Positions 10,203-63,660 of a stretch of 64,000 nucleotides of DNA are shown piece after piece. This stretch comes from an uncultured Candidatus Binatia bacterium (lineage in GTDB: Bacteria; Desulfobacterota; Binatia; UBA9968; CAXXLF01): assembly GCA_965218425.1 (NCBI GenBank), contig OZ244621.1:2272001-2336000 (forward strand). The letters run 5' to 3'. Position 1 is the first letter of the stretch. Each line of letters opens with the position of its first letter. Under the pieces are notes generated by a model, which made no database searches, was not told the origin of the DNA, and worked only from the letters and a program-made list of their open reading frames with translations. Position numbers and translations under genes: made by a program.

Positions 10203-11573
10203 ATGACCACGAAATACGATGCCATCGTTATCGGTACAGGCCAGTCGGGCCCTTCCCTGGCCGCGCGGATGGCGGGTGAAGGAATGAAAGTTGCCATCAT
10301 TGAACGCAAGTCGTTTGGTGGCACCTGCGTTAATACCGGTTGAATACCCACCAAGACCCTGGTGGCCAGTGCCCATGCCGCTCACATTGCAAGGCGTGGG
10401 GCTGAATACGGGGTGATGATCGGCGGGCCGGTCACCGTGGATATGAAAAAGGTCAAGGAGCGTAAGGACAAGGCGGTGCAGCGGTCCAATCAGGGAGTGG
10501 GCAATTGGGTCAAGAACCTGAAGAACGCTAAGGTTTACGAAGACCACGGGCGGTTCGAGGGACCCCACGCGGTGCGTGTGGGAGGGGAGCTCATAGAGGC
10601 GGATAAGATTTTCATCAATGTCGGCGCGCGCGCGTCGGTAATGGACCTCCCTGGGGTAAATTACTTCACCAATTCGAGCATCATGGAGGTGGATTTTCTC
10701 CCAAAGCACCTGATCGTGGTCGGCGGAAGCTACATCGGCCTGGAGTTTGGTCAGATGTACAGACGCTTCGGCAGCGAAGTGACCATCGTGGACCGTGGGC
10801 CTCGGTTGACCCAGCAGGATGATGAGGACACTTCCCTGGCGATCAAGGAGATTTTGGAAGCGGAGGGGGTGAACGTTCGGCTCGAAGCTGAATGTATTTC
10901 TGCTGCGCAAAAGGGCGATCAGATCACCGTCAATTTGGACTGCAAAACCGGAGGTAAGGAGGTAACGGGTACCCACCTGCTGCTCGCCATCGGACGGCGT
11001 CCCAACACGGACGACCTGGGCATAGATAAAGCAGGCCTCGAAGTGGATCGGCGGGGGTACATCAAGGTGGACGATCGGCTTCAGACCAACGTGCCTGGAG
11101 TTTGGGCCATTGGGGACTGCAATGGCAAGGGAGCCTTCACCCACACCTCGTATAACGACTATGAAATTGTTGCGGCCAATCTGTTCGACGACGACCCACG
11201 CCGGGTCAGCGACCGAATTTTAACCTATGGGATGTTTATCGATCCGCCCCTCGGACGCGCGGGAATGATCGAAGATGCAGTGAAAAAATCAGGCCGCAAA
11301 GCGTTGATAGCAAAGAGGCCCATGACTCGTGTGGCGCGCGCCGTGGAGAAAGGCGAGACACAGGGATTTATGAAGATCTTGGTGGATGCCGAAACCAAAG
11401 AGATCCTCGGGGCCGCCGTCCTTGGTGTTGGTGGCGATGAAATCATTCATTCCATCCTGGATGTGATGTACGCCAAGGCGCCCTGCACGGTTATTCAGCG
11501 GGCTGTCCACGCCCACCCAACGGTGTCGGAGCTGATACCCACCATGCTGGGGGACCTGAAGCCGCTGGAGTGA
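10203..11573 (+). CDS. Class I pyridine nucleotide-disulfide oxidoreductase selenoprotein (C42-VNTG-U47); MerA/RclA/Lpd-like
   Basis: ATG 10203 with GGAG RBS; IGTGQSG FAD motif; GGTCVNTG-TGA(10341-10343)-IPTKTL continues in frame into the 403-aa ORF; GGSYIGLE; HPTVSE dyad. No C-terminal CC pair and no NmerA domain. Confidence 0.85.
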
Positions 11574-12678: not shown

Positions 12679-13641
12679 ATGCAGAGCTTCGCTGAGAAAA
12701 TAAGACAAAGCGGCGACAGCTTCCTCAAGCGCAAGGTGGAAACCCTGCAGGTTAACATGGGGAAGTACTGCAACCAGGCATGCCTGCACTGTCACGTGGA
12801 GGCGGGACCCACCCGGAAGGAAATCATGACTCTGGAAACGGTAGAGTCGGTGCTCCGTTTCCTCGAGAAGTCCGATGTGCCCACAGTGGACATCACGGGG
12901 GGCGCGCCGGAGCTCAACCCGCATTTCGACTACCTCGTGGAGCGCAGCGTCCAGCTTGGCCGCCACGTGATGGACCGATGCAATCTCACCGTCATCTTTG
13001 AACAGGGGAAGGAGTATCTCCCGGACTTCTTTCAAAAAAACCGGGTGGAGCTGATCTGCTCTCTTCCCTGCTACACAGAGGGGAACGTAGACCAACAGAG
13101 GGGCAAAGGGACCTTCAATCTGAGTATCCGGGCGCTGCGGCTTCTGAACGGCCTGGGATATGGAGTCGAAGGCACGGGTCTGGAGCTGCAATTGGTCTAT
13201 AACCCGGTGGGGGCTTACCTTCCGTCGCCCCAGGAACGATTGGAACAGGACTATAAGACTATCCTCAAGGAAGAATACGGCATCGTTTTTAACCATCTCT
13301 ACTGTCTTACCAATGTGCCCATCACTCGATTTGAGACCTTTCTGAAGGTGCGAAACGAGTATGACCGGTATATGGAGCTGATCCAGTCCGCGTTCAACCC
13401 GGATACCGTGGACAAGGTCATGTGCAGAAACATCTTGAGCGTAGGATGGGAGGGGTCCGTTTACGACTGTGACTTCAATCAGATGCTGGAGCTGCCGGTC
13501 TCGAACCGACAGGGTAAGCCGCTAAAGATCCAGGACCTCCATGCCGATGGCCTGGAAAATCAATCAATCGTGGTCGGAAATCACTGCTACGCCTGTACGG
13601 CGGGAGCCGGGAGTAGCTGCGGCGGTTCATTAATAGCGTAA
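12679..13641 (+). CDS. arsS: ArsS-type radical SAM / Cys-rich (DUF3641) protein
   Basis: LQVNMGKYCNQACLHCH, DITGGAPEL, SLPCY...NVDQQRG, YDCDFNQML, HCYACTAGAGSSCGG. Confidence 0.85.
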   Translation: MQSFAEKIRQSGDSFLKRKVETLQVNMGKYCNQACLHCHVEAGPTRKEIMTLETVESVLRFLEKSDVPTVDITGGAPELNPHFDYLVERSVQLGRHVMDRCNLTVIFEQGKEYLPDFFQKNRVELICSLPCYTEGNVDQQRGKGTFNLSIRALRLLNGLGYGVEGTGLELQLVYNPVGAYLPSPQERLEQDYKTILKEEYGIVFNHLYCLTNVPITRFETFLKVRNEYDRYMELIQSAFNPDTVDKVMCRNILSVGWEGSVYDCDFNQMLELPVSNRQGKPLKIQDLHADGLENQSIVVGNHCYACTAGAGSSCGGSLIA

Positions 13642-14380: not shown

Positions 14381-15685
14381 TCAGGCGCTATCCTCTGCTT
14401 TACTCTGCTTCCGATCCGACTCCAGTGACGCCAGCGCCTCCTTTACCAGCTTGCGCCGTAATTCTTTCTCTTCCTCGCCCGTCAGGTTTGCCGCGCCGGT
14501 GACGTGGACTATGCCGTTGCCCAAAACGACGCGGTTGGAACCGACCATCTTTGCAATGGGCATGGCCGAGGTAATCTGGACCACCGGGATGCCCGCCTTT
14601 TCCAGCTCGGTTGATATCGCAGCTCCGCTGCGAGTGCTCGTTCCTCAGGTGGAGGTGAGGATGACGGCGTCGACCTCCTCCCGCTTCACTTTTTCGGCCA
14701 TCTCCCTGCCCAGGCGCCGCGTGTTCGAGAGCGGGTTCGATAGACCAGATGTGGAGATGAACTCGTGGTGGAGTTTTCCGATCCTGCCGCTTCTTTCCAT
14801 CTCGCGCATGGCGTCGAGGGGCACGAGACGGTCCGGATCCTGTTGAACGAATCTCGGATCATAGCCGCCGTGAGAGATCTCGTAGTCCTCCCCCCTGAGA
14901 TCATCCCGGCCGTCGATGCTATAGGAGCCCCACCGGGTGGCGGCTTGTCCTTCGATTTTGTCCGGGTTGCCCTTCGGAACGAGGCCGCCGTCGGTGATGA
15001 GCATGACCTTGGCCTTCGAAAGATCCCCCACGGCGGAGGGCATGGGAACCGGTTTAAAGGAAGTCGGCAACATCTCAGACTCGAAGGGCTCTCCTTTCAC
15101 TTTCGTCAGGAGCATATCAACGAGCCGGACGGCGGCCGTCCGATCCGCCAGTTGATCGCGCAGGATACCCCGGGAAAGGTAGCCTTCCTCTGCGGGCAGC
15201 CCGATGGACTTACCGTGGACGAGCTTTCCTCCCAGACGCGCCATTTTGGTTAGGACTTGCCGCATCTTGGCGGGGCTCGCACCCGAATTCACGATATAGA
15301 GCGCTTCCCGGTTGAGATCCGCCCCCGGGTTCTCGCTGCCCATCCCGGTAACGACGGGAATCCCCAGGTTGGACTGAACGGCGGCGCAGAGGGACCCCGC
15401 CGCCATCCCATATCGACCCGCTTCGAAGCAAGGACCGGCAACGAACAGCTCTGCACCCGCCTCCCGGACCTTTGCCAGCACCGCGGCCGTCAACTCCTCC
15501 TGGTGTTCCACGGCATGGTTGTCTCCGGAAATGAGGGTCATAACCACACGTGAGCCATCGCCCAGCAGTTGTTCCAACAGCCTCCCCGGTCCTACGGCCC
15601 CCTCACGCGCCTCAAGGGGCATGCCCGCCTGCTCCTCTCCCCCGACTCCGCCGAAAAACTGATTCAAATAGTGTACGATTCGCAT
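14381..15685 (-). CDS. grdB: Glycine/sarcosine/betaine reductase family selenoprotein B (Sec347)
   Basis: MRIVHYLNQFFGGVGGEE, AGPCFEAGRYG, DGGLVPKGNPDKIE, HGGYDP. VDAVILTST-TGA(14645-14647)-GTSTRSGAAISTELEKAGIPVVQIT continues in frame to stop 14381. Confidence 0.92.
14617..14633 (-). promoter_or_regulatory. SECIS hairpin (grdB)
   Basis: UCGCAGC-GGA-GCUGCGA: perfect 7-bp stem, 17 nt long, starting after an 11-nt spacer from the UGA. Confidence 0.8.
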
Positions 15686-15718
15686 TTTTTGACCCTCCTC
15701 ACCGGATTCGCGACTGGA

Positions 15719-16999
15719 TCAAGTGACCAAAGCCCGCATTCTCGAGGCTCCCTGTTGATTGGTGACGCCGGCAACGTTCGCAGCGGCGACCTTCGTCGGT
15801 CCGGCCAACACCCTCCTCAACTCCGGGGTCGCGGCGATGATCCGATCCACCGGTGCCAACGTGTAATTCGTTCCGTTTCCGCCGTTGTATACGATGGCAT
15901 TCACCTCCGGAAAGTTGAAGAGCAGAGCCGACTCGACCCGCCTGTCCCTTGCCATGTCCGAGACCATGACAGTGGTTTTTATGCCCATACCTTCCAGGAG
16001 CCGAGCGGTCTCCGCCAAGTCGGCATGGGGAACACCGCCGCCGTACTTGGTTAGAATGACGGCGTCCGCTTTCAACGCCCACCTGACCAGATTCGCAGCC
16101 GTCCGACAGTTTCGGTCGCGGTCGAAGTTGTCGGAACCGGCAACGGTCGCCACCGTGCCCACGAAGTTGAGATGCCGCGCATGGTGGCGACCGTAGAGCT
16201 CCAGGATCACGGGGTGATTTTGATAGAAGTAGGTTTCCGCGCCGCCGATGGAAGAATGGTACGATGGGACGACGGCGCCGTCCAGCCACTCGTCGGGATG
16301 AAGCGGGATGGGCAGCATCCCTTCCGTGTTGGCGCCATAGAGAATGGGCTCGTCCACGCCGGGCTTTCGCTGGCGCGAGAAGATCTGGCCTACATATGCG
16401 ACCCGGGGAAGCCCCTCGCGTCCCGCCTCCGCGGGACCCGCCGGGTCGAATTGACGGGTGGATGCCGCAGGCTGACTCGCCGCAATGCGGGCCATATGAA
16501 CCGAGAGCCTGAGACCGGCCCGACGATACGCTTTTCCGATGCTTTGAGCGGGCAACTCCGAACGCGTACGGGGAATCGCCACCAGGTGGTGCAACGAGGA
16601 GTAATTGCTGCCTTCAGCGGCTGCCCCGCTCATCTCCAATACCCGGCCCGTCACGCCCCTGGACTCTCCCGGAGACCTCTCCGCCAGAACGGTGACGACG
16701 GCTCCTTCGAGCACATGGGTCGTCCCCATGCCCGCCGTTTCCGGCGCACCCAGGATGCCCGGGAAATCAGGGCTTGAGCCCTCTCCTTTAGCTCTGGGCT
16801 CGATGATGTCGAAGACGGGCGCGGCCCGACAACTCTCGCCGGGGCGCACGATTTGGAAATCCACGCCGGTAAGGGCATCGTCTTCAAGAACCAACCGGCG
16901 CAGTTCCTCCGGATCGACGACGAGGACCGAGCCGTCGAGACGGGCCGGTGTTTCCAAGCGGATCTCCGTGATGGGGTGACATGCCAGGGTCAAACGCAT
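15719..16999 (-). CDS. grdE: Glycine/sarcosine/betaine reductase component B proprotein (GrdE/GrdG/GrdI family)
   Basis: IVRPGESCR...DIIEPRAK, FPG..G....AG.GTTHVL, LHPDEWLDGAVV, TYFYQNHPVILELY.RH...LNFVG, ADAVILTK.GGG.P..D. Confidence 0.85.
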   Translation of the reverse strand: MRLTLACHPITEIRLETPARLDGSVLVVDPEELRRLVLEDDALTGVDFQIVRPGESCRAAPVFDIIEPRAKGEGSSPDFPGILGAPETAGMGTTHVLEGAVVTVLAERSPGESRGVTGRVLEMSGAAAEGSNYSSLHHLVAIPRTRSELPAQSIGKAYRRAGLRLSVHMARIAASQPAASTRQFDPAGPAEAGREGLPRVAYVGQIFSRQRKPGVDEPILYGANTEGMLPIPLHPDEWLDGAVVPSYHSSIGGAETYFYQNHPVILELYGRHHARHLNFVGTVATVAGSDNFDRDRNCRTAANLVRWALKADAVILTKYGGGVPHADLAETARLLEGMGIKTTVMVSDMARDRRVESALLFNFPEVNAIVYNGGNGTNYTLAPVDRIIAATPELRRVLAGPTKVAAANVAGVTNQQGASRMRALVT

Positions 17000-17119
17000 T
17001 TTTCTTTCCTCTCGTGAAGACCCGGCAAGGGACCGGGAGTCCTCCAGGAGCGAGCGCAATCTCAGACCGGCTACTGCTCTGCTTATACCTCAAAGCAAGC
17101 TTGCCGCCAAGGGTTCAGC

Positions 17120-17587
17120 TTATCCGTCGGCGAGCCCGGAGCGAACCTCCCGCATCGCCGTGGCGATAGCCTCGGTTTCCACTGCCATCTCGATCAGGCC
17201 CACCTCGTCGGCGTAGGTCTCGGGGTCCACCTGCTCCTTGATCTCGGGCTCGGTGATGTGGAAGACGGGGAGTTTCAAGCCGACGCCGCCGAGCGCTCCC
17301 GCCCAGGTCGGATCCCCATCGGTCATGGTCAGGCCGAACAGTTTGCTGCTCTCTGCGGTGGGAGTTCCGAGAAGGACAACGACACCGGCAGTCCCCGTGG
17401 CGTCTACCTTCCGTTTGATTTCTTCTTGACCTTCCAGGTCAAGCGCGCCCGACGCCGTTCAGACGAAACAGTGGGTGAGTTCAAGGATGACTTCGGCGCC
17501 CGCGCTTTTCGCGCAAAGAGCGATGGAGTTGCCTTGAACGCCGTCTCTTTCTCCCAGAACAATGACTTTCTTCCCGTTCAGCTTCAT
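17120..17587 (-). CDS. grdA: Glycine/sarcosine/betaine reductase selenoprotein A (CxxU, Sec43)
   Basis: Only the 3' part is in the ORF track. MKLNGKKVIVLGERDGVQGNSIALC...THCFV-TGA(17459-17461)-TASGALDLEGQ...GDPTWAGALGGVGLKLPVFHITEPEIK. Confidence 0.93.
17425..17443 (-). promoter_or_regulatory. SECIS hairpin (grdA)
   Basis: CUUGACCU-GGA-AGGUCAAG: perfect 8-bp stem, 15 nt after the UGA, same GGA loop as grdB. Confidence 0.75.
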
Positions 17588-17770
17588 AACGCCCCCGTCA
17601 TTCATATCGAGCCGAGACTACGACCTCGCCAAGCCGGAACATCTAGCAGAGGACAGTAGGCGGCAAGAAATCAACCTCTTGACCTTACTTTTCTTAAATT
17701 TAGCTTTGACCGCCGCATACCGCTTACTGCGAACTGCTTACTGGTTTCGCTTTGCGCGAGTCATCCCCGG

Positions 17771-19222
17771 TTAGTTTTTCGGGTTACGCTCCAATACAAA
17801 GGATAATCCGTCCGCCATCTGAGTCATGCGGCCTAAAAACAGGCTCCCTTTGGCCAAGAACATGGCTCGATCCATAGCCCCCGACACGATACGGTCCACT
17901 GCGTGCCCCAGGAAAGGGATCGCCGAGGCGATATGGCCCTGAGTCGGGGCATAACCGGGCATTCCGTGTGTTTCCGCAAAACTTGAAATCTCGTTAGGGG
18001 CGATCTCTTTGTTCCGCGCCGCCAGGGCGGCGATAAGCCTGTAGTTCGTCAACGGAACGTTGCCGTTTCCGGACGGTTCCGTCACCTCCGGGTTGTGCAG
18101 CTCGGTGGCGTACTTGTCGATATCCCCGAAGCGCAATTTTAGTTTCTGCAGCGGCTCGGCCACCAGTGAGCCGAAGACGGCCTGCTGGCTCGAGCCGGCA
18201 CCCACCCGGTGCATACCGACGGAATCCAGCCTTAGCCAAGGATGTTTCCCGTCGTCCCCGGAGACGTGGATGGCAACTCCCGCCAAAACATCCTCCAAGA
18301 CCGGTTGTTCGTGTTTGAGATGGCCTTGAAACTTCATCCCGAGTTTCGCCAGAGAGCCGCCCCCGACGACCACCACATTGCGGAACACACCCGCGCTCAC
18401 GAGGCTGCCGGCCAGCAGCAAAGCATGGTTCGGACCCGAGCAAAAGCCTTTGACGTCGACCCCGCTCGCCATGGAGCACCCGCACATTTCCCCGATGGCC
18501 TTCGCCAGGTTTCCTCCGCCGCGCTGGTAACGGTCGCCCACCGCCTCCTCGCCGCTGTTTAGAACATAATCAATGGCAGCGGCCTGTGCGCCTTCACCCT
18601 TCAGGAGCGTCTTCAGGGCCACTACCGCCGTCGCCTTGCAGGCCAGGTTCTCGAGGAGAATGTCGGGCGCAAGGGAGCGGTCCTCCCGATCGCCCGGCAG
18701 GACGCAGCCCACCAATTGCCCGTCCCGCAGATTGAGGGGGAGCGCGGGCGACGGACCGTCGATCCGAGCCTCGATGGCGGAGAGCGGCTTGCCGTCGTTG
18801 AGGTTCGCGGCTTCCACCTTCCCGAAGAGCGGATGGAGTTCCAACGCCCGCCGCGCCGTCCCGAGAAAACCTTCCTCGAGCCAAAGCAGCCCGAAGAGAT
18901 CGCAGAGCTTCATGACGGCGTAAAACTCCTCTTCCGGCATGAATTCACCATGCCGTTGCCGCCGTTCCGTATCCTGTCTCACGGCAAACCAGGGCCGTTG
19001 GAGGGATTTCAGTTCATCGGGGTAGATGGATCCTAGAAATACCCGGTTCGGCGGATAGGACAAAGCGTCCTCGAAGGAACGGAGCCGCTCCCGAATTCGT
19101 TCGCTTACCGCCGCTTCCCGGACGATTTCACGCGCCGGTTTCGAGCCGTGGGTGACAAGTCCGGGCGTATGAGATAAAAAGTAGCGAACGGCCTTGATGA
19201 CTGGTTGATTTCCCGGGGGCAT
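17771..19222 (-). CDS. grdC: Glycine/sarcosine/betaine reductase component C beta subunit (FabH-like)
   Basis: LRSFEDALSYPPN, LENLACKAT, EEAVGDRYQRGGGNLAKAIGE, DVKGFCSGP, ELHNPEVT, PGYAPTQGHI, KGSLFLGRMT. Confidence 0.92.
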   Translation of the reverse strand: MPPGNQPVIKAVRYFLSHTPGLVTHGSKPAREIVREAAVSERIRERLRSFEDALSYPPNRVFLGSIYPDELKSLQRPWFAVRQDTERRQRHGEFMPEEEFYAVMKLCDLFGLLWLEEGFLGTARRALELHPLFGKVEAANLNDGKPLSAIEARIDGPSPALPLNLRDGQLVGCVLPGDREDRSLAPDILLENLACKATAVVALKTLLKGEGAQAAAIDYVLNSGEEAVGDRYQRGGGNLAKAIGEMCGCSMASGVDVKGFCSGPNHALLLAGSLVSAGVFRNVVVVGGGSLAKLGMKFQGHLKHEQPVLEDVLAGVAIHVSGDDGKHPWLRLDSVGMHRVGAGSSQQAVFGSLVAEPLQKLKLRFGDIDKYATELHNPEVTEPSGNGNVPLTNYRLIAALAARNKEIAPNEISSFAETHGMPGYAPTQGHIASAIPFLGHAVDRIVSGAMDRAMFLAKGSLFLGRMTQMADGLSFVLERNPKN

Positions 19223-19347: not shown

Positions 19348-20847
19348 ATGATCCGTCTCTCAACGATTCCCAATCGGGCGCACCTGATCAACTGGTTTGA
19401 ATGGGGGGAAGAGGCGTTCCGCGCGGCTCGAGGCCACAATAAGCCCTTGATGCTTTTTTTGCACGCCTTTTGGTGCCGTATCTGCCAGCGAATGGACGAG
19501 GACGCCTTCTCTAACGACGAGAATATCACGTTGCTGAACGCCTACTTCGTCTCGGTCCGGGCGGAGAACGCGAAGCGGCCCGACGTGGACGTTCGCTACA
19601 ATCAAAACGGGTGGCCCACGATTGTTTTCATGACCCCGGAGGGGGAACAGCTCGCCTGCGCGAACAGCCTTGACGCGGAGGCGCTCGGAAGCCTTTTGGT
19701 TCGGGTCTATGAGGCTAATCGGAAGATTCGAAACGAAGTTCGCGGGAAAAAGGGAACACTCGCACGGGCCCCACGCGAGGCCGCGAGTCGGCCGGACCCC
19801 ATCGACCATCGGGACTCTGGCGTTTCGGAGATTACCCAGCTGATCATGGGGCTCGCCGACCGCGTTCACGGCGGCTACGGGCATGGTCGGAAATATATCC
19901 ATTCGGATGCGAACGATTTTTTGCTCTCCCGTTATGGAGCGGCAAAGAATTCCGACTATCTCGATCACGTGTGTTTAACTCTCGACCGGATGCGGGAGAG
20001 TCCGATCCACGATCGTGAAGAGGGCGGGTACTACCGCACTGCCTCCGGTGAGGACTGGAGCGGCCCCCACCGGGAAAAGCTTCTGGCGGATCAGGCGGGC
20101 ATCCTTAACAACTGCCTGGGGGTTTTCGAGATCACTAAAAACCCAACCTATGCGCGTATGGGTGAAGGCATTATCGACTACCTGAATAACAGGCTTTTGG
20201 ATTCTTGCAGCGGAACCTATTTCGGTTGCGAGGATTTTATTCGAAGCGAAGACAAGGATGCTTCTTCCCGGGCAGGGTATTTCTCCATCCTGGACGACTG
20301 TATTTACACGGACGCGAACGCCGACGCCATCGGCGCTTACCTCAGAGCCTATGCCGTGTTGGGCAAGTCGGCCTGCAAGGAGATTGCGTTAAAGGCGCTG
20401 GAATTCATCTGGGACAAATGCCGGAGTCCCCGAGGGGGAGTCTATCATTACTTCGACGGCGCGCCTCACGGGCCGGGATTGCTCGATGATCAAGCGCGCC
20501 TGGGCGCGGTGTTGGTGCATGCATGGAAAGCCACCGGCGAAACTCGGTATCTGGACCGCGCGAAGGATTTGGCCGAATTCATTCTGGCGAGACTGAGAAA
20601 CCCGGCCGGCGGCTACTACGATCTTTCGGCGCCGGGAGCCGCATACCTCCGCTACCCGCTGACTCTGATCGAACGGAACGGAGCCGCTGCGGCGTTTTTT
20701 TTCGCCCTCGCCGAGTCCAGAGGCGAGGCCAAATACCGGGACGCAGGGGTTTGGGCCATCGGCGCGTTCACGGGAGATTTCGGTCGGTACGGAATTCACG
20801 CGGCGGGGTTCGGTCGAGCGCTCGCTGAATTCGTGCGGCGTCCTTAG
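19348..20847 (+). CDS. YyaL/SSP411-like thioredoxin-domain protein (DUF255 plus alpha/alpha barrel)
   Basis: INWFEWGEEAFRAA, WCRICQRMD, RPDVDVRY..NGWPTIVFMTPEG, GGYYR....DWSGPHREKLLADQA. Confidence 0.88.
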   Translation: MIRLSTIPNRAHLINWFEWGEEAFRAARGHNKPLMLFLHAFWCRICQRMDEDAFSNDENITLLNAYFVSVRAENAKRPDVDVRYNQNGWPTIVFMTPEGEQLACANSLDAEALGSLLVRVYEANRKIRNEVRGKKGTLARAPREAASRPDPIDHRDSGVSEITQLIMGLADRVHGGYGHGRKYIHSDANDFLLSRYGAAKNSDYLDHVCLTLDRMRESPIHDREEGGYYRTASGEDWSGPHREKLLADQAGILNNCLGVFEITKNPTYARMGEGIIDYLNNRLLDSCSGTYFGCEDFIRSEDKDASSRAGYFSILDDCIYTDANADAIGAYLRAYAVLGKSACKEIALKALEFIWDKCRSPRGGVYHYFDGAPHGPGLLDDQARLGAVLVHAWKATGETRYLDRAKDLAEFILARLRNPAGGYYDLSAPGAAYLRYPLTLIERNGAAAAFFFALAESRGEAKYRDAGVWAIGAFTGDFGRYGIHAAGFGRALAEFVRRP

Positions 20848-62718: not shown

Positions 62719-63660
62719 ATGGAGAAAAAAAGCCACTACCGCGTAATCATTCTGGGATCCGGTCCGGCGGGCCTTACCGCCGCCCTCTATGCGGCCAGGG
62801 CAGAGCTGGAGCCCCTGGTGATAGAAGGGAGCCAGCCGGGGGGCCAACTAACCATTACCACCGACGTGGAGAACTATCCAGGATTTCCCAAGGGTATCCT
62901 TGGTCCCGAACTGATGGATGAATTCAAAAGACAGGCGGAGCGATTTGGTACCCGGACTTTATTTGGCGATGTGACAGAGGTCAGCCTCCAGAAAAGGCCT
63001 TTTCAGCTCGAAGTAGGTAAAAATACCCTCACGTGCGATACTCTTATTATTTCAACGGGTGCCTCGGCAAAGCTTTTGGGGCTGGAATCGGAAAAGAAAC
63101 TGATGGGATACGGCGTCTCGGCCTGCGCCACCTGCGACGGTTTTTTCTTTAAAGAAAAGGAAGTGGTCTGCGTCGGGGGAGGAGACACGGCCATGGAGGA
63201 GGCCACCTTTCTCACCAAGTTCGCTTCAAAAGTCCATGTGGTCCATCGCCGGAACAAGCTCCGGGCATCGAAAATCATGCAGGATCGCGCCATGAAAAAC
63301 CCCAAGATCAATTTCATCTGGGACAGTGTAGTGGAAGAGATTAACGGTGATTCCCAAAATGGTGGCGTCACCGGTGTGAGGCTAAAGAACGTAAAAACGG
63401 GAAAGACCGAGGAGTTTAAGTGTGACGGTGTGTTTCTGGCCATCGGGCACGAACCCAACAGCAAGCCCTTCGCGGGACAGTTGGAAATGGATGAGCAGGG
63501 ATATATCCTCACCCATGACGGTACCAAGACCAGCATTCCTGGCGTCTTTGCCTGTGGCGATATACAGGACCATGTCTATCGTCAGGCTGTCACCGCTGCC
63601 GGCTCCGGTTGCATGGCGGCCATCGATGCGGAACGGTTCTTGGAAAGCCAGGAATCCTGA
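62719..63660 (+). CDS. trxB: Thioredoxin-disulfide reductase
   Basis: [55 protein letters not shown]. Confidence 0.97.

Follow-up and report, generated by a model that had tools for sequence, protein, structure and literature searches.

What does a glycine reductase (Grd)-like selenoprotein operon do when the cysteines next to the selenol of GrdB, the cleavage cysteine of GrdE and the grdD gene are all missing? This question is raised by the grdC-grdA-grdE-grdB locus of an uncultured Candidatus Binatia bacterium, which is located at positions 14381-19222 on the minus strand of a 64,000-nucleotide stretch of contig OZ244621.1 (in the following the window, i.e., the whole stretch of DNA that was analysed) and belongs to a single-contig genome of 4.46 Mb with a completeness of 97%. 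The locus is a real selenium-enzyme operon that is related to glycine reductase and comes from a widespread, uncharacterised branch. Judged from the sequences, we assign a probability of roughly 55% to the reading that it encodes a functional non-canonical Grd-type selenoprotein reductase, whose protein B, composed of a putatively unprocessed GrdE-like subunit and a selenocysteine (Sec)-containing GrdB-like subunit with the motif U-x-x-S-x-x-S, represents a distinct and uncharacterised clade. Most likely it would be a Grd-type C-X bond reductase that works without a pyruvoyl group and whose end product is not acetyl phosphate. An earlier note on this DNA had given the gene order as well as three characteristic readings, CFVU with Sec in GrdA, STUGTSTRSGA in GrdB and DGAVVPSYHSS in the site loop of GrdE. 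All of these were recovered, the first two readings via in-frame UGA codons:

17771-19222, minus strand: grdC, thiolase-like component C beta subunit of 483 amino acids (aa), with Cys261 in GFCSG
17120-17605, minus strand: grdA, selenoprotein A of 161 aa, with the Sec codon 17459-17461 in CFVU
15719-16999, minus strand: grdE-like protein B subunit of 426 aa, with a canonical cleavage site that lacks Cys
16235-16282, minus strand: GrdE site loop D240-E255, DGAVVPSYHSSIGGAE, with Tyr247 aligned to the canonical cleavage Cys and Ser246 preceding it
14381-15685, minus strand: grdB-like selenoprotein B of 434 aa, with Sec347 at codon 14645-14647
14636-14638 and 14627-14629, minus strand: codons of GrdB Ser350 and Ser353, respectively, in the motif U-G-T-S-T-R-S

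Each of the four genes is intact and present as a single copy in the genome, and the grdE-like gene itself ends with a TGA stop codon. The CFVU motif is kept in 15 of 15 related GrdA rows, and C261, H338 and H430 of GrdC are invariant across 25 GrdC sequences, C261 independently of the presence of grdD. Moreover, grdC also matches DUF5940 and, weakly, ACP_syn_III. The genome-wide search for the selABCD genes, which the earlier note had proposed as a check, revealed tRNA-Sec, selA, selB and selD, and the Sec machinery is therefore complete. On the 3' side of both UGA codons a candidate hairpin for a selenocysteine insertion sequence (SECIS) is found:

14590-14644, minus strand: SECIS candidate 3' of the grdB UGA, 8-bp stem and GGA loop, starting about 13 nt after the UGA
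17400-17458, minus strand: SECIS candidate 3' of the grdA UGA, 8-bp stem and GGA loop

The fold energy of the grdB hairpin region is no better than that of shuffled sequences (z = -0.33), and that of the grdA region (z = -1.59 against shuffles) is alone not significant. An Rfam search of the whole window gave no family at the gathering score, and a sequence search of the PDB gave no match for GrdB or GrdE. The selD gene (G000:C1:1307623-1308549) contains an in-frame TGA, so that the selenophosphate synthetase is itself a selenoprotein, and selA, selB and the tRNA-Sec gene are located within 12 kb of selD.

Which type of reductase is it, then? GrdC and GrdA pass the cut-offs of their equivalog models (NF040746, 615 bits vs. 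a cut-off of 450, and NF040748, 177 bits vs. 130, respectively; GrdA also matches PF04723 with 174 bits). GrdB reaches 430 bits with PF07355 and 455 bits with the broad subfamily model TIGR01918, which is the only model passed beyond Pfam, and fails those for glycine-type GrdB (TIGR01917, 421 bits, cut-off 602), sarcosine GrdF (NF040794, 472 bits, cut-off 800) and betaine GrdH (NF040795, 424 bits, cut-off 775). GrdE matches PF09338 with 246 bits and fails the models for sarcosine GrdG (NF040793, 172 bits, cut-off 780) and fluoroacetate FarE (NF053623, 140 bits, cut-off 675). Among the general features of Grd complexes, a CxxU selenoprotein A, adjacent subunits of the GrdB and GrdE families and GrdC are present, whereas GrdD, the UxxCxxC motif in the B selenoprotein and trxA/trxB in the operon are missing. 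PMC9751293 gives AHGGxD...TxGNxTxV as the GrdB motif for glycine and IHGGYDR...TTGTGT as that for sarcosine; the window GrdB reads SHGGYDP...STSGLSNP and matches neither of the two. The idea that the operon encodes a divergent reductase of the Grd family is thus in line with the fact that all substrate-specific models remain below cut-off. One could still assume an ordinary, albeit divergent, reductase for glycine, sarcosine or betaine, in which GrdC makes acetyl phosphate either on its own or together with the housekeeping PlsX as a substitute for GrdD. The equivalog scores of GrdA and GrdC agree with this assumption, but GrdB and GrdE are far under every substrate-specific cut-off, and both published substrate motifs are missing.

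Canonical operons were used as controls, and the features given for them in the earlier note, UGTCTRC, SGNC and grdD after grdC, are indeed present in Firmicute loci. UGTCTRC occurs in 12 of 12 Firmicute GrdB/GrdH rows, seven Firmicute loci combine a UGTCTRC GrdB with a SGNCVSAC GrdE, and grdD is directly 3' of grdC in all six Firmicute loci that carry a full grdC. In Thermobrachium celere (L074) the genes are arranged as trxB-trxA-grdE-grdA-grdB-grdC-grdD. Two bona fide GrdH proteins (837 and 828 bits, cut-off 775) also read UGTCTRC, and the GrdI partnered with a bona fide GrdH has the loop SGSFMPCSS, from which the cleavage Cys is absent. An unprocessed E-type subunit would hence be compatible with an ordinary betaine reductase, as GrdI is likewise unprocessed, but the bona fide motifs of GrdH and GrdI are both unlike those of the window.

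The serines of GrdB could in principle be read errors, which the earlier note had named as a way to refute its proposal. GrdB was scanned in one genome per species, giving 138 relatives, of which the best 80 loci were kept and read through UGA. Five reference rows were added to the set, and 87 rows were counted for the motif:

UGTSTRS: 68 of 87 rows
UGTCTRC: 12 of 87 rows
UGTSTRC: 4 of 87 rows
UGSSTRC: 1 of 87 rows
unreadable because of split hits: 2 of 87 rows

With the window GrdB the UGTSTRS rows share 63-91% identity, and their records are labelled as Binatia, 'delta proteobacterium', Thermodesulfobacteriota, Dehalococcoidia/SAR202, Nitrospinota, Acidiferrales, Udaeobacter and others. Moreover, contigs of runs X1 and X2, which belong to two studies, cover positions 14381-17441 from grdB to grdA with zero and one differences, the sole difference being at 16018 within grdE, although one of the contig-yielding runs may be the source sample. 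As UGTSTRS is present in 68 rows and the contigs agree with the window, the Ser codons are real and not errors. In a FastTree phylogeny of the 84 GrdB rows with a length of 400 aa or more, a branch with a Shimodaira-Hasegawa (SH)-like support of 100 separates the 67 U..S..S rows from all others; this is a local support in a tree whose root was not inferred, and the split persists after the motif columns have been dropped. The first Cys position after Sec varies (S, G, A or C) in other uncharacterised GrdB pairs, whereas the second Cys is kept in all other GrdB groups that were read through and is lost only in the U..S..S clade. No account of this clade was found in the open literature searched, with subscription journals and the supplementary tree of PMC9751293 lying outside of this scope, and the sources searched contained no literature on grd genes in Binatia.

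A further substitution sets the window GrdB apart. At position 53 in the 'CGD' motif it has Ser (TCC, 15527-15529), where 85 of 88 GrdB-family rows have Cys, and the contigs of four runs show no difference at this codon. Together with the lost cysteines, C53S might mark the window copy as a decaying or non-catalytic remnant. However, none of the four reading frames is broken, neither UGA codon has been lost, position 53 is Val in two further clade members, and apart from C53S the window GrdB, GrdE, GrdC and GrdA match every position at which at least 95% of the rows agree. As the Ser residues of the motif are fixed over 68 rows from several phyla, which indicates selection rather than decay, we consider a remnant highly improbable.

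In contrast to the canonical SGNC site, no cleavage cysteine is present in the window GrdE. Tyr247 occupies the canonical Cys column in three alignments, and 66 of 81 GrdE rows are without Cys across the 16-column stretch of the site. Within the clade, 64 of 65 GrdE rows have loops of the P/T-S-Y/L type and none has the Cys of SGNC. A full HMMER scan of 1.84 billion representatives for GrdE-like proteins gave 921 clusters (50% identity) at a threshold of E 0.001, of which 181 remain at E 1e-30. The best 150 (P0001-P0150) include 108 full-length proteins, whose canonical cleavage column contains Cys in only four cases and Tyr, the commonest residue, in 49, and a Cys-less GrdE like that of the window is therefore the majority state of the superfamily. 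The view that a GrdE without Cys marks an undescribed system is not supported, since it is the commonest state and has published precedents. At E 1e-110, 102 of the 108 representatives match no NCBIfam model; most of the GrdE-like superfamily is uncharacterised and represents a large unexplored set of probable protein B modules.

Most pyruvoyl enzymes are processed at Ser. GrdE could likewise still be a proprotein, in which serinolysis at Ser246 leads to a pyruvoyl group that binds amine substrates as a Schiff base. In favor of this, Ser is present at the column of Ser246 in 64 of 65 clade GrdE rows, and Cys has been replaced by Ser elsewhere in the system (UxxSxxS). On the other hand, it is Tyr247 and not Ser246 that fills the canonical Cys column, Tyr is the commonest residue of this column also across the superfamily, in the clade member L046 the Ser is replaced by Ala, and the residue preceding the Ser varies (P, T, A, I, F). 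Processing at Ser246 is hence regarded as improbable, and a GrdE-like subunit that stays unprocessed is the reading that we follow further.

How would such a reaction end? That grdD is missing beside grdC and in the window, as stated in the earlier note, is correct and extends to the complete genome, since neither a profile search of the whole 4.46-Mb genome with NF040747 nor tblastn with the verified GrdD of L074 (588 bits) gave a match. The sole PlsX homolog is encoded in an rpmF-plsX-fabD context and reaches just 28 bits on the GrdD model, which argues against a housekeeping PlsX in place of GrdD. Sixteen hosts of the clade were compared, comprising this genome, five complete chromosomes and 10 metagenome-assembled genomes (MAGs). 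GrdC was found in all 16, over the cut-off in 15, and GrdD over the cut-off in none, whereas the positive control succeeded in three of three Firmicutes. GrdD is also absent from two MAGs with a U..S..C-type GrdB. Each of the five complete Binatia-labelled genomes has one grdC-grdA pair, beside which a replacement of GrdD was searched for; only a weak M20-like gene and an Opp-type transporter, and nothing PlsX- or Pta-like, were found there.

The absence of grdD is not restricted to the clade, however. Three genomes that are 90-100% complete (G028, G036, G103) contain GrdC and no GrdD. G103 (L102, G103:C81; 100% complete) combines a SGNCVSAC GrdE and a UGTCTRC GrdB with grdC, and G028 (L101, G028:C170; 94% complete) a SGNC GrdE and a UGTGTRC GrdB with grdC. 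Because grdD is thus also missing beside a canonical-type protein B, its loss is a wider trait outside Firmicutes and not a signature of the clade. Conversely, G045 of the same phylum (L100, G045:C4:226000-238000, and G045:C4:235486-236655) shows the order grdE-grdB-grdC-grdD-trxA-grdA, followed by acetate kinase; its grdD product reaches 544 bits, but this grdD is accompanied by a Cys-less GrdE and a UGSSTRC GrdB. The notion that UxxSxxS, a Cys-less GrdE and the absence of grdD go along with each other as one syndrome is contradicted by G103, G028 and G045. Cys228 of GrdC was considered as a marker of partnership with GrdD and rejected, as G045 (with grdD) and G103 (without grdD) both have EEAAGD at this site. 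EEACGD is present in 12 of 12 Firmicute GrdC proteins, with GrdD verified in eight of the 12 loci, and EEAVGD in 13 of 13 others.

In addition to GrdD, the enzymes that would use acetyl phosphate are largely missing. There is no candidate for acetate kinase in this genome, and PTA_PTB was found in none of the seven genomes searched (this genome and six relatives). Acetate kinase is missing in 11 of the 16 clade hosts, among them four complete genomes (this one and three others), vs. its presence in three of three Firmicute hosts. A route that bypasses acetyl phosphate, which the earlier note had suggested, is supported insofar as it fits the lack of GrdD, acetate kinase and Pta in the genome. 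For an ordinary glycine, sarcosine or betaine reductase, the GrdD-less genomes G103 and G028 imply that GrdD is dispensable for an apparent glycine reductase, and five of the 16 clade hosts do have acetate kinase; the window genome, however, has neither acetate kinase nor Pta. Taken together with the scores and motifs above, we regard an ordinary reductase as rather unlikely and prefer a reductase of separate type, which would release its product in another form than acetyl phosphate.

If thioredoxin is not encoded in the operon, what could reduce the complex? The lack of trxA/trxB in the operon was confirmed, as neither is present within 10 kb. A gene that was absent from the earlier note, however, adjoins grdC and encodes a DUF255 protein with a CxxC motif, and a trxB gene is found further away in the window:

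19348-20847, plus strand: DUF255 (Thioredox_DsbH) protein of 499 aa, divergent from grdC (PF03190, 75 bits; PF13899, 50 bits)
19474-19485, plus strand: C43-x-x-C46 of the DUF255 protein
62719-63660, plus strand: trxB, thioredoxin-disulfide reductase (TIGR01292, 423 bits vs. a cut-off of 343), 43 kb away and outside of the operon

The DUF255 protein consists of an N-terminal domain with thioredoxin fold, which contains the CxxC, and a barrel-type domain at the C-terminus, and has a relative in PDB entry 7tkv. In 36 loci such proteins are encoded next to GrdE, either immediately upstream in the same orientation or divergently. Of the 42 clade loci that are flanked by 3 kb or more on both sides, 29 have a DUF255 gene at a distance of no more than 6.5 kb. 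The motif AFWCxxCQ was seen in 35 of 38 DUF255 rows, the remaining three being fragments, and an alignment of 22 sequences shows C43, C46 and C294 to be invariant. The only other DUF255 paralog of the genome is distant (27% identity). Since all canonical and U..S..C loci, but only one clade locus (L041), have trxA as an adjacent gene, DUF255 occupies the usual place of trxA. In five complete chromosomes it travels with grdE-grdB, whereas the lone grdC-grdA pair is located megabases away, which links the DUF255 protein to protein B at least as much as to GrdA. The third invariant Cys of the Grd-linked DUF255 proteins, C294, is part of a G-C-x-D motif in the C-terminal barrel, where many invariant polar residues are found as well, and this domain may itself bind something. 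TrxB, which is 44% identical to the operon TrxB of L074, is a possible NADPH-linked reductant for the system. The window also encodes a class-I flavoprotein disulfide reductase (10203-11573, plus strand) whose redox-active pair, CVNTGU, includes Sec; if the U is taken as C, the protein reaches 775 bits on NF004992 (cut-off 629). This flavoprotein could reduce the DUF255 protein or GrdA, although nothing links them.

Does the locus reveal its substrate? Two loop types of GrdE each go along with particular loops of GrdB: PS[LF]xSW[FIM]G in GrdE pairs with ST[CS]GRxNPLSN and SHGGYD[TA]RF in GrdB, and the window type [PT]SY... pairs with STSGLxNPLSN and SHGGYDP[RQK]F. Such a co-variation is as expected of two walls of one substrate pocket, and the GrdB regions concerned are those bearing the glycine and sarcosine signatures given in PMC9751293. 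Several genomes carry two or more GrdE/GrdB pairs of the clade. This is in line with a single GrdA and a single GrdC serving several substrate-specific modules, as is the case in Peptoclostridium, and the substrate probably differs between the sub-clades. The neighboring genes comprise, in two Pfam annotation sets, SBP_bac_5, subunits of Rieske oxygenases and of Mo-hydroxylases and hydantoinase A/B, as well as M20 and M24 peptidases, isochorismatase, RidA, CoA-transferase III and MFS. They suggest, inconsistently, a catabolism of amides, N-heterocycles or amino-acid derivatives. A substrate assignment from the gene context was rejected, as no theme is common to all sub-clades. The Cys form of an ArsS-type radical-SAM (seleno)protein is encoded convergently with grdB at 12679-13641 on the plus strand (TIGR04167, 443 bits vs. 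a cut-off of 300), a neighbor that is common only to the closest relative L002.

The hosts differ from those of canonical glycine reductase also in their energy metabolism. As described in PMC13188914 and PMC10298544, glycine reductase is a device of anaerobes for substrate-level phosphorylation that gains ATP via acetyl phosphate, and selenoproteins are rarely kept by aerobes. This genome, however, encodes a haem-copper oxidase subunit I (506 bits), and COX1 was found in all 16 clade hosts vs. none of three Firmicute hosts. Since the hosts respire oxygen, the system would probably serve a catabolic C-X cleavage and not a Stickland-type energy conservation.

The steps of a possible mechanism can be proposed by homology with the scheme of Arkowitz-Abeles and Andreesen, as summarised in PMC10298544. 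An alpha-substituted acetate (X-CH2-COO-) would bind to protein B with no involvement of a pyruvoyl Schiff base, as Tyr247 replaces the pyruvoyl-forming Cys. The selenolate of GrdB Sec347 would then displace X, and the carboxymethyl group would move to GrdA Sec49, where Cys46 would close a selenenyl-sulfide bond. The C2 unit would be captured as a thioester on Cys261 of GrdC and probably be released as acetate or acetyl-coenzyme A (CoA), and not as acetyl phosphate, because GrdD, acetate kinase and Pta are missing in the genome. The DUF255 CxxC protein is the likely dedicated reductant or protector of the disulfide or selenenyl-sulfide and might be recharged by TrxB or another flavoprotein. 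In a wider and only tentative reading, O2-respiring Binatia, SAR202 and Nitrospinota may share an unrecognised class of Grd selenoenzymes, in which the Cys around the selenol are all replaced and DUF255 is a dedicated partner. It might cleave the C-X bond of alpha-substituted acetates, such as osmolyte-like onium compounds, haloacetates or N-substituted glycines, to acetyl-CoA or acetate, in a non-Stickland and possibly oxygen-tolerant way and with several substrate modules per genome.

Several points weigh against the preferred reading of the locus. DUF255 is absent near 13 of the 42 clade loci with good flanks, and the role of the DUF255 protein is a putative one, suggested by gene linkage. 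Acetate kinase is present in the five clade hosts mentioned above, and the canonical-type G103 and G028 imply that GrdC alone or with an unknown helper may still make acetyl phosphate without GrdD. Furthermore, C53S in the window GrdB could mean a reduced function in this particular genome, and the neighboring genes give no consistent clue to the substrate. Grd machinery is found here in genomes with haem-copper oxidases, without GrdD and mostly without acetate kinase, and the host lineages abound in soils and in the dark ocean. Should the clade be active, it would represent a new route of reductive C-X cleavage in the turnover of small N-, S- or halogen-bearing acids, the first functional context for a DUF255 thioredoxin-like protein, and a set of natural variants for probing the roles of the UxxCxxC cysteines and of GrdD.

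How does the locus compare with known systems? With the glycine reductase GrdABCDE/TrxAB of L074 it has in common the CxxU GrdA, the GrdC with its invariant Cys and the STUGT of GrdB, and both follow the same logic, in which protein B binds the substrate and feeds GrdA and GrdC as shared components. Of the two, only L074 has UxxCxxC, the SGNC GrdE, grdD after grdC and trxB and trxA in the operon. Moreover, the L074 host has acetate kinase and no haem-copper oxidase, whereas the situation in the window genome is reversed. In the betaine reductase GrdH/GrdI of the Peptoclostridium type the E-type subunit is unprocessed as well, because betaine cannot form a Schiff base, and GrdA and protein C are shared with other reductases. 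It differs in UGTCTRC of GrdH and SGSFMPCSS of GrdI vs. UGTSTRS and DGAVVPSYHSS in the window, and the betaine locus L095 has grdD, trxA and trxB, none of which is part of the window operon.

Cys-less E-type subunits (GrdI, FarE) and a B subunit without CxxC (FarB) are already known from published work, the latter from PMC10838667. According to this source, the fluoroacetate reductase FarB/FarE of Cloacibacillus porcorum (Synergistota) is an active reductase that feeds the shared GrdA; FarB, by the description given there, is without the CxxC, and FarE, like GrdI, has neither of the processing cysteines. The system is considered to need no Schiff base. In these respects it is similar to the window system. 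However, the site loop of the FarE-like representative P0127 is shorter than that of the window GrdE. The far operon contains the antiporter gene farA and the radical-SAM gene farC and no DUF255, whereas the window has DUF255 and no antiporter. Moreover, Far hosts are strict anaerobes with grdC and grdD, whereas grdD is missing in the window genome. Also comparable are other uncharacterised GrdE/GrdB pairs from Desulfobacterota and Dehalococcoidia, i.e., the U..S..C group (L061, L062, L064, L079) and those of G028 and G036, which, like the window, have a Cys-less or Tyr-type GrdE and GrdC without GrdD outside of Firmicutes. Their GrdB proteins are 47-50% identical to that of the window, and their operons contain trxA instead of DUF255. 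All of these pairs keep the second Cys (UGTSTRC, UGTGTRC, UGTANRC), which in the window GrdB is replaced by Ser353.

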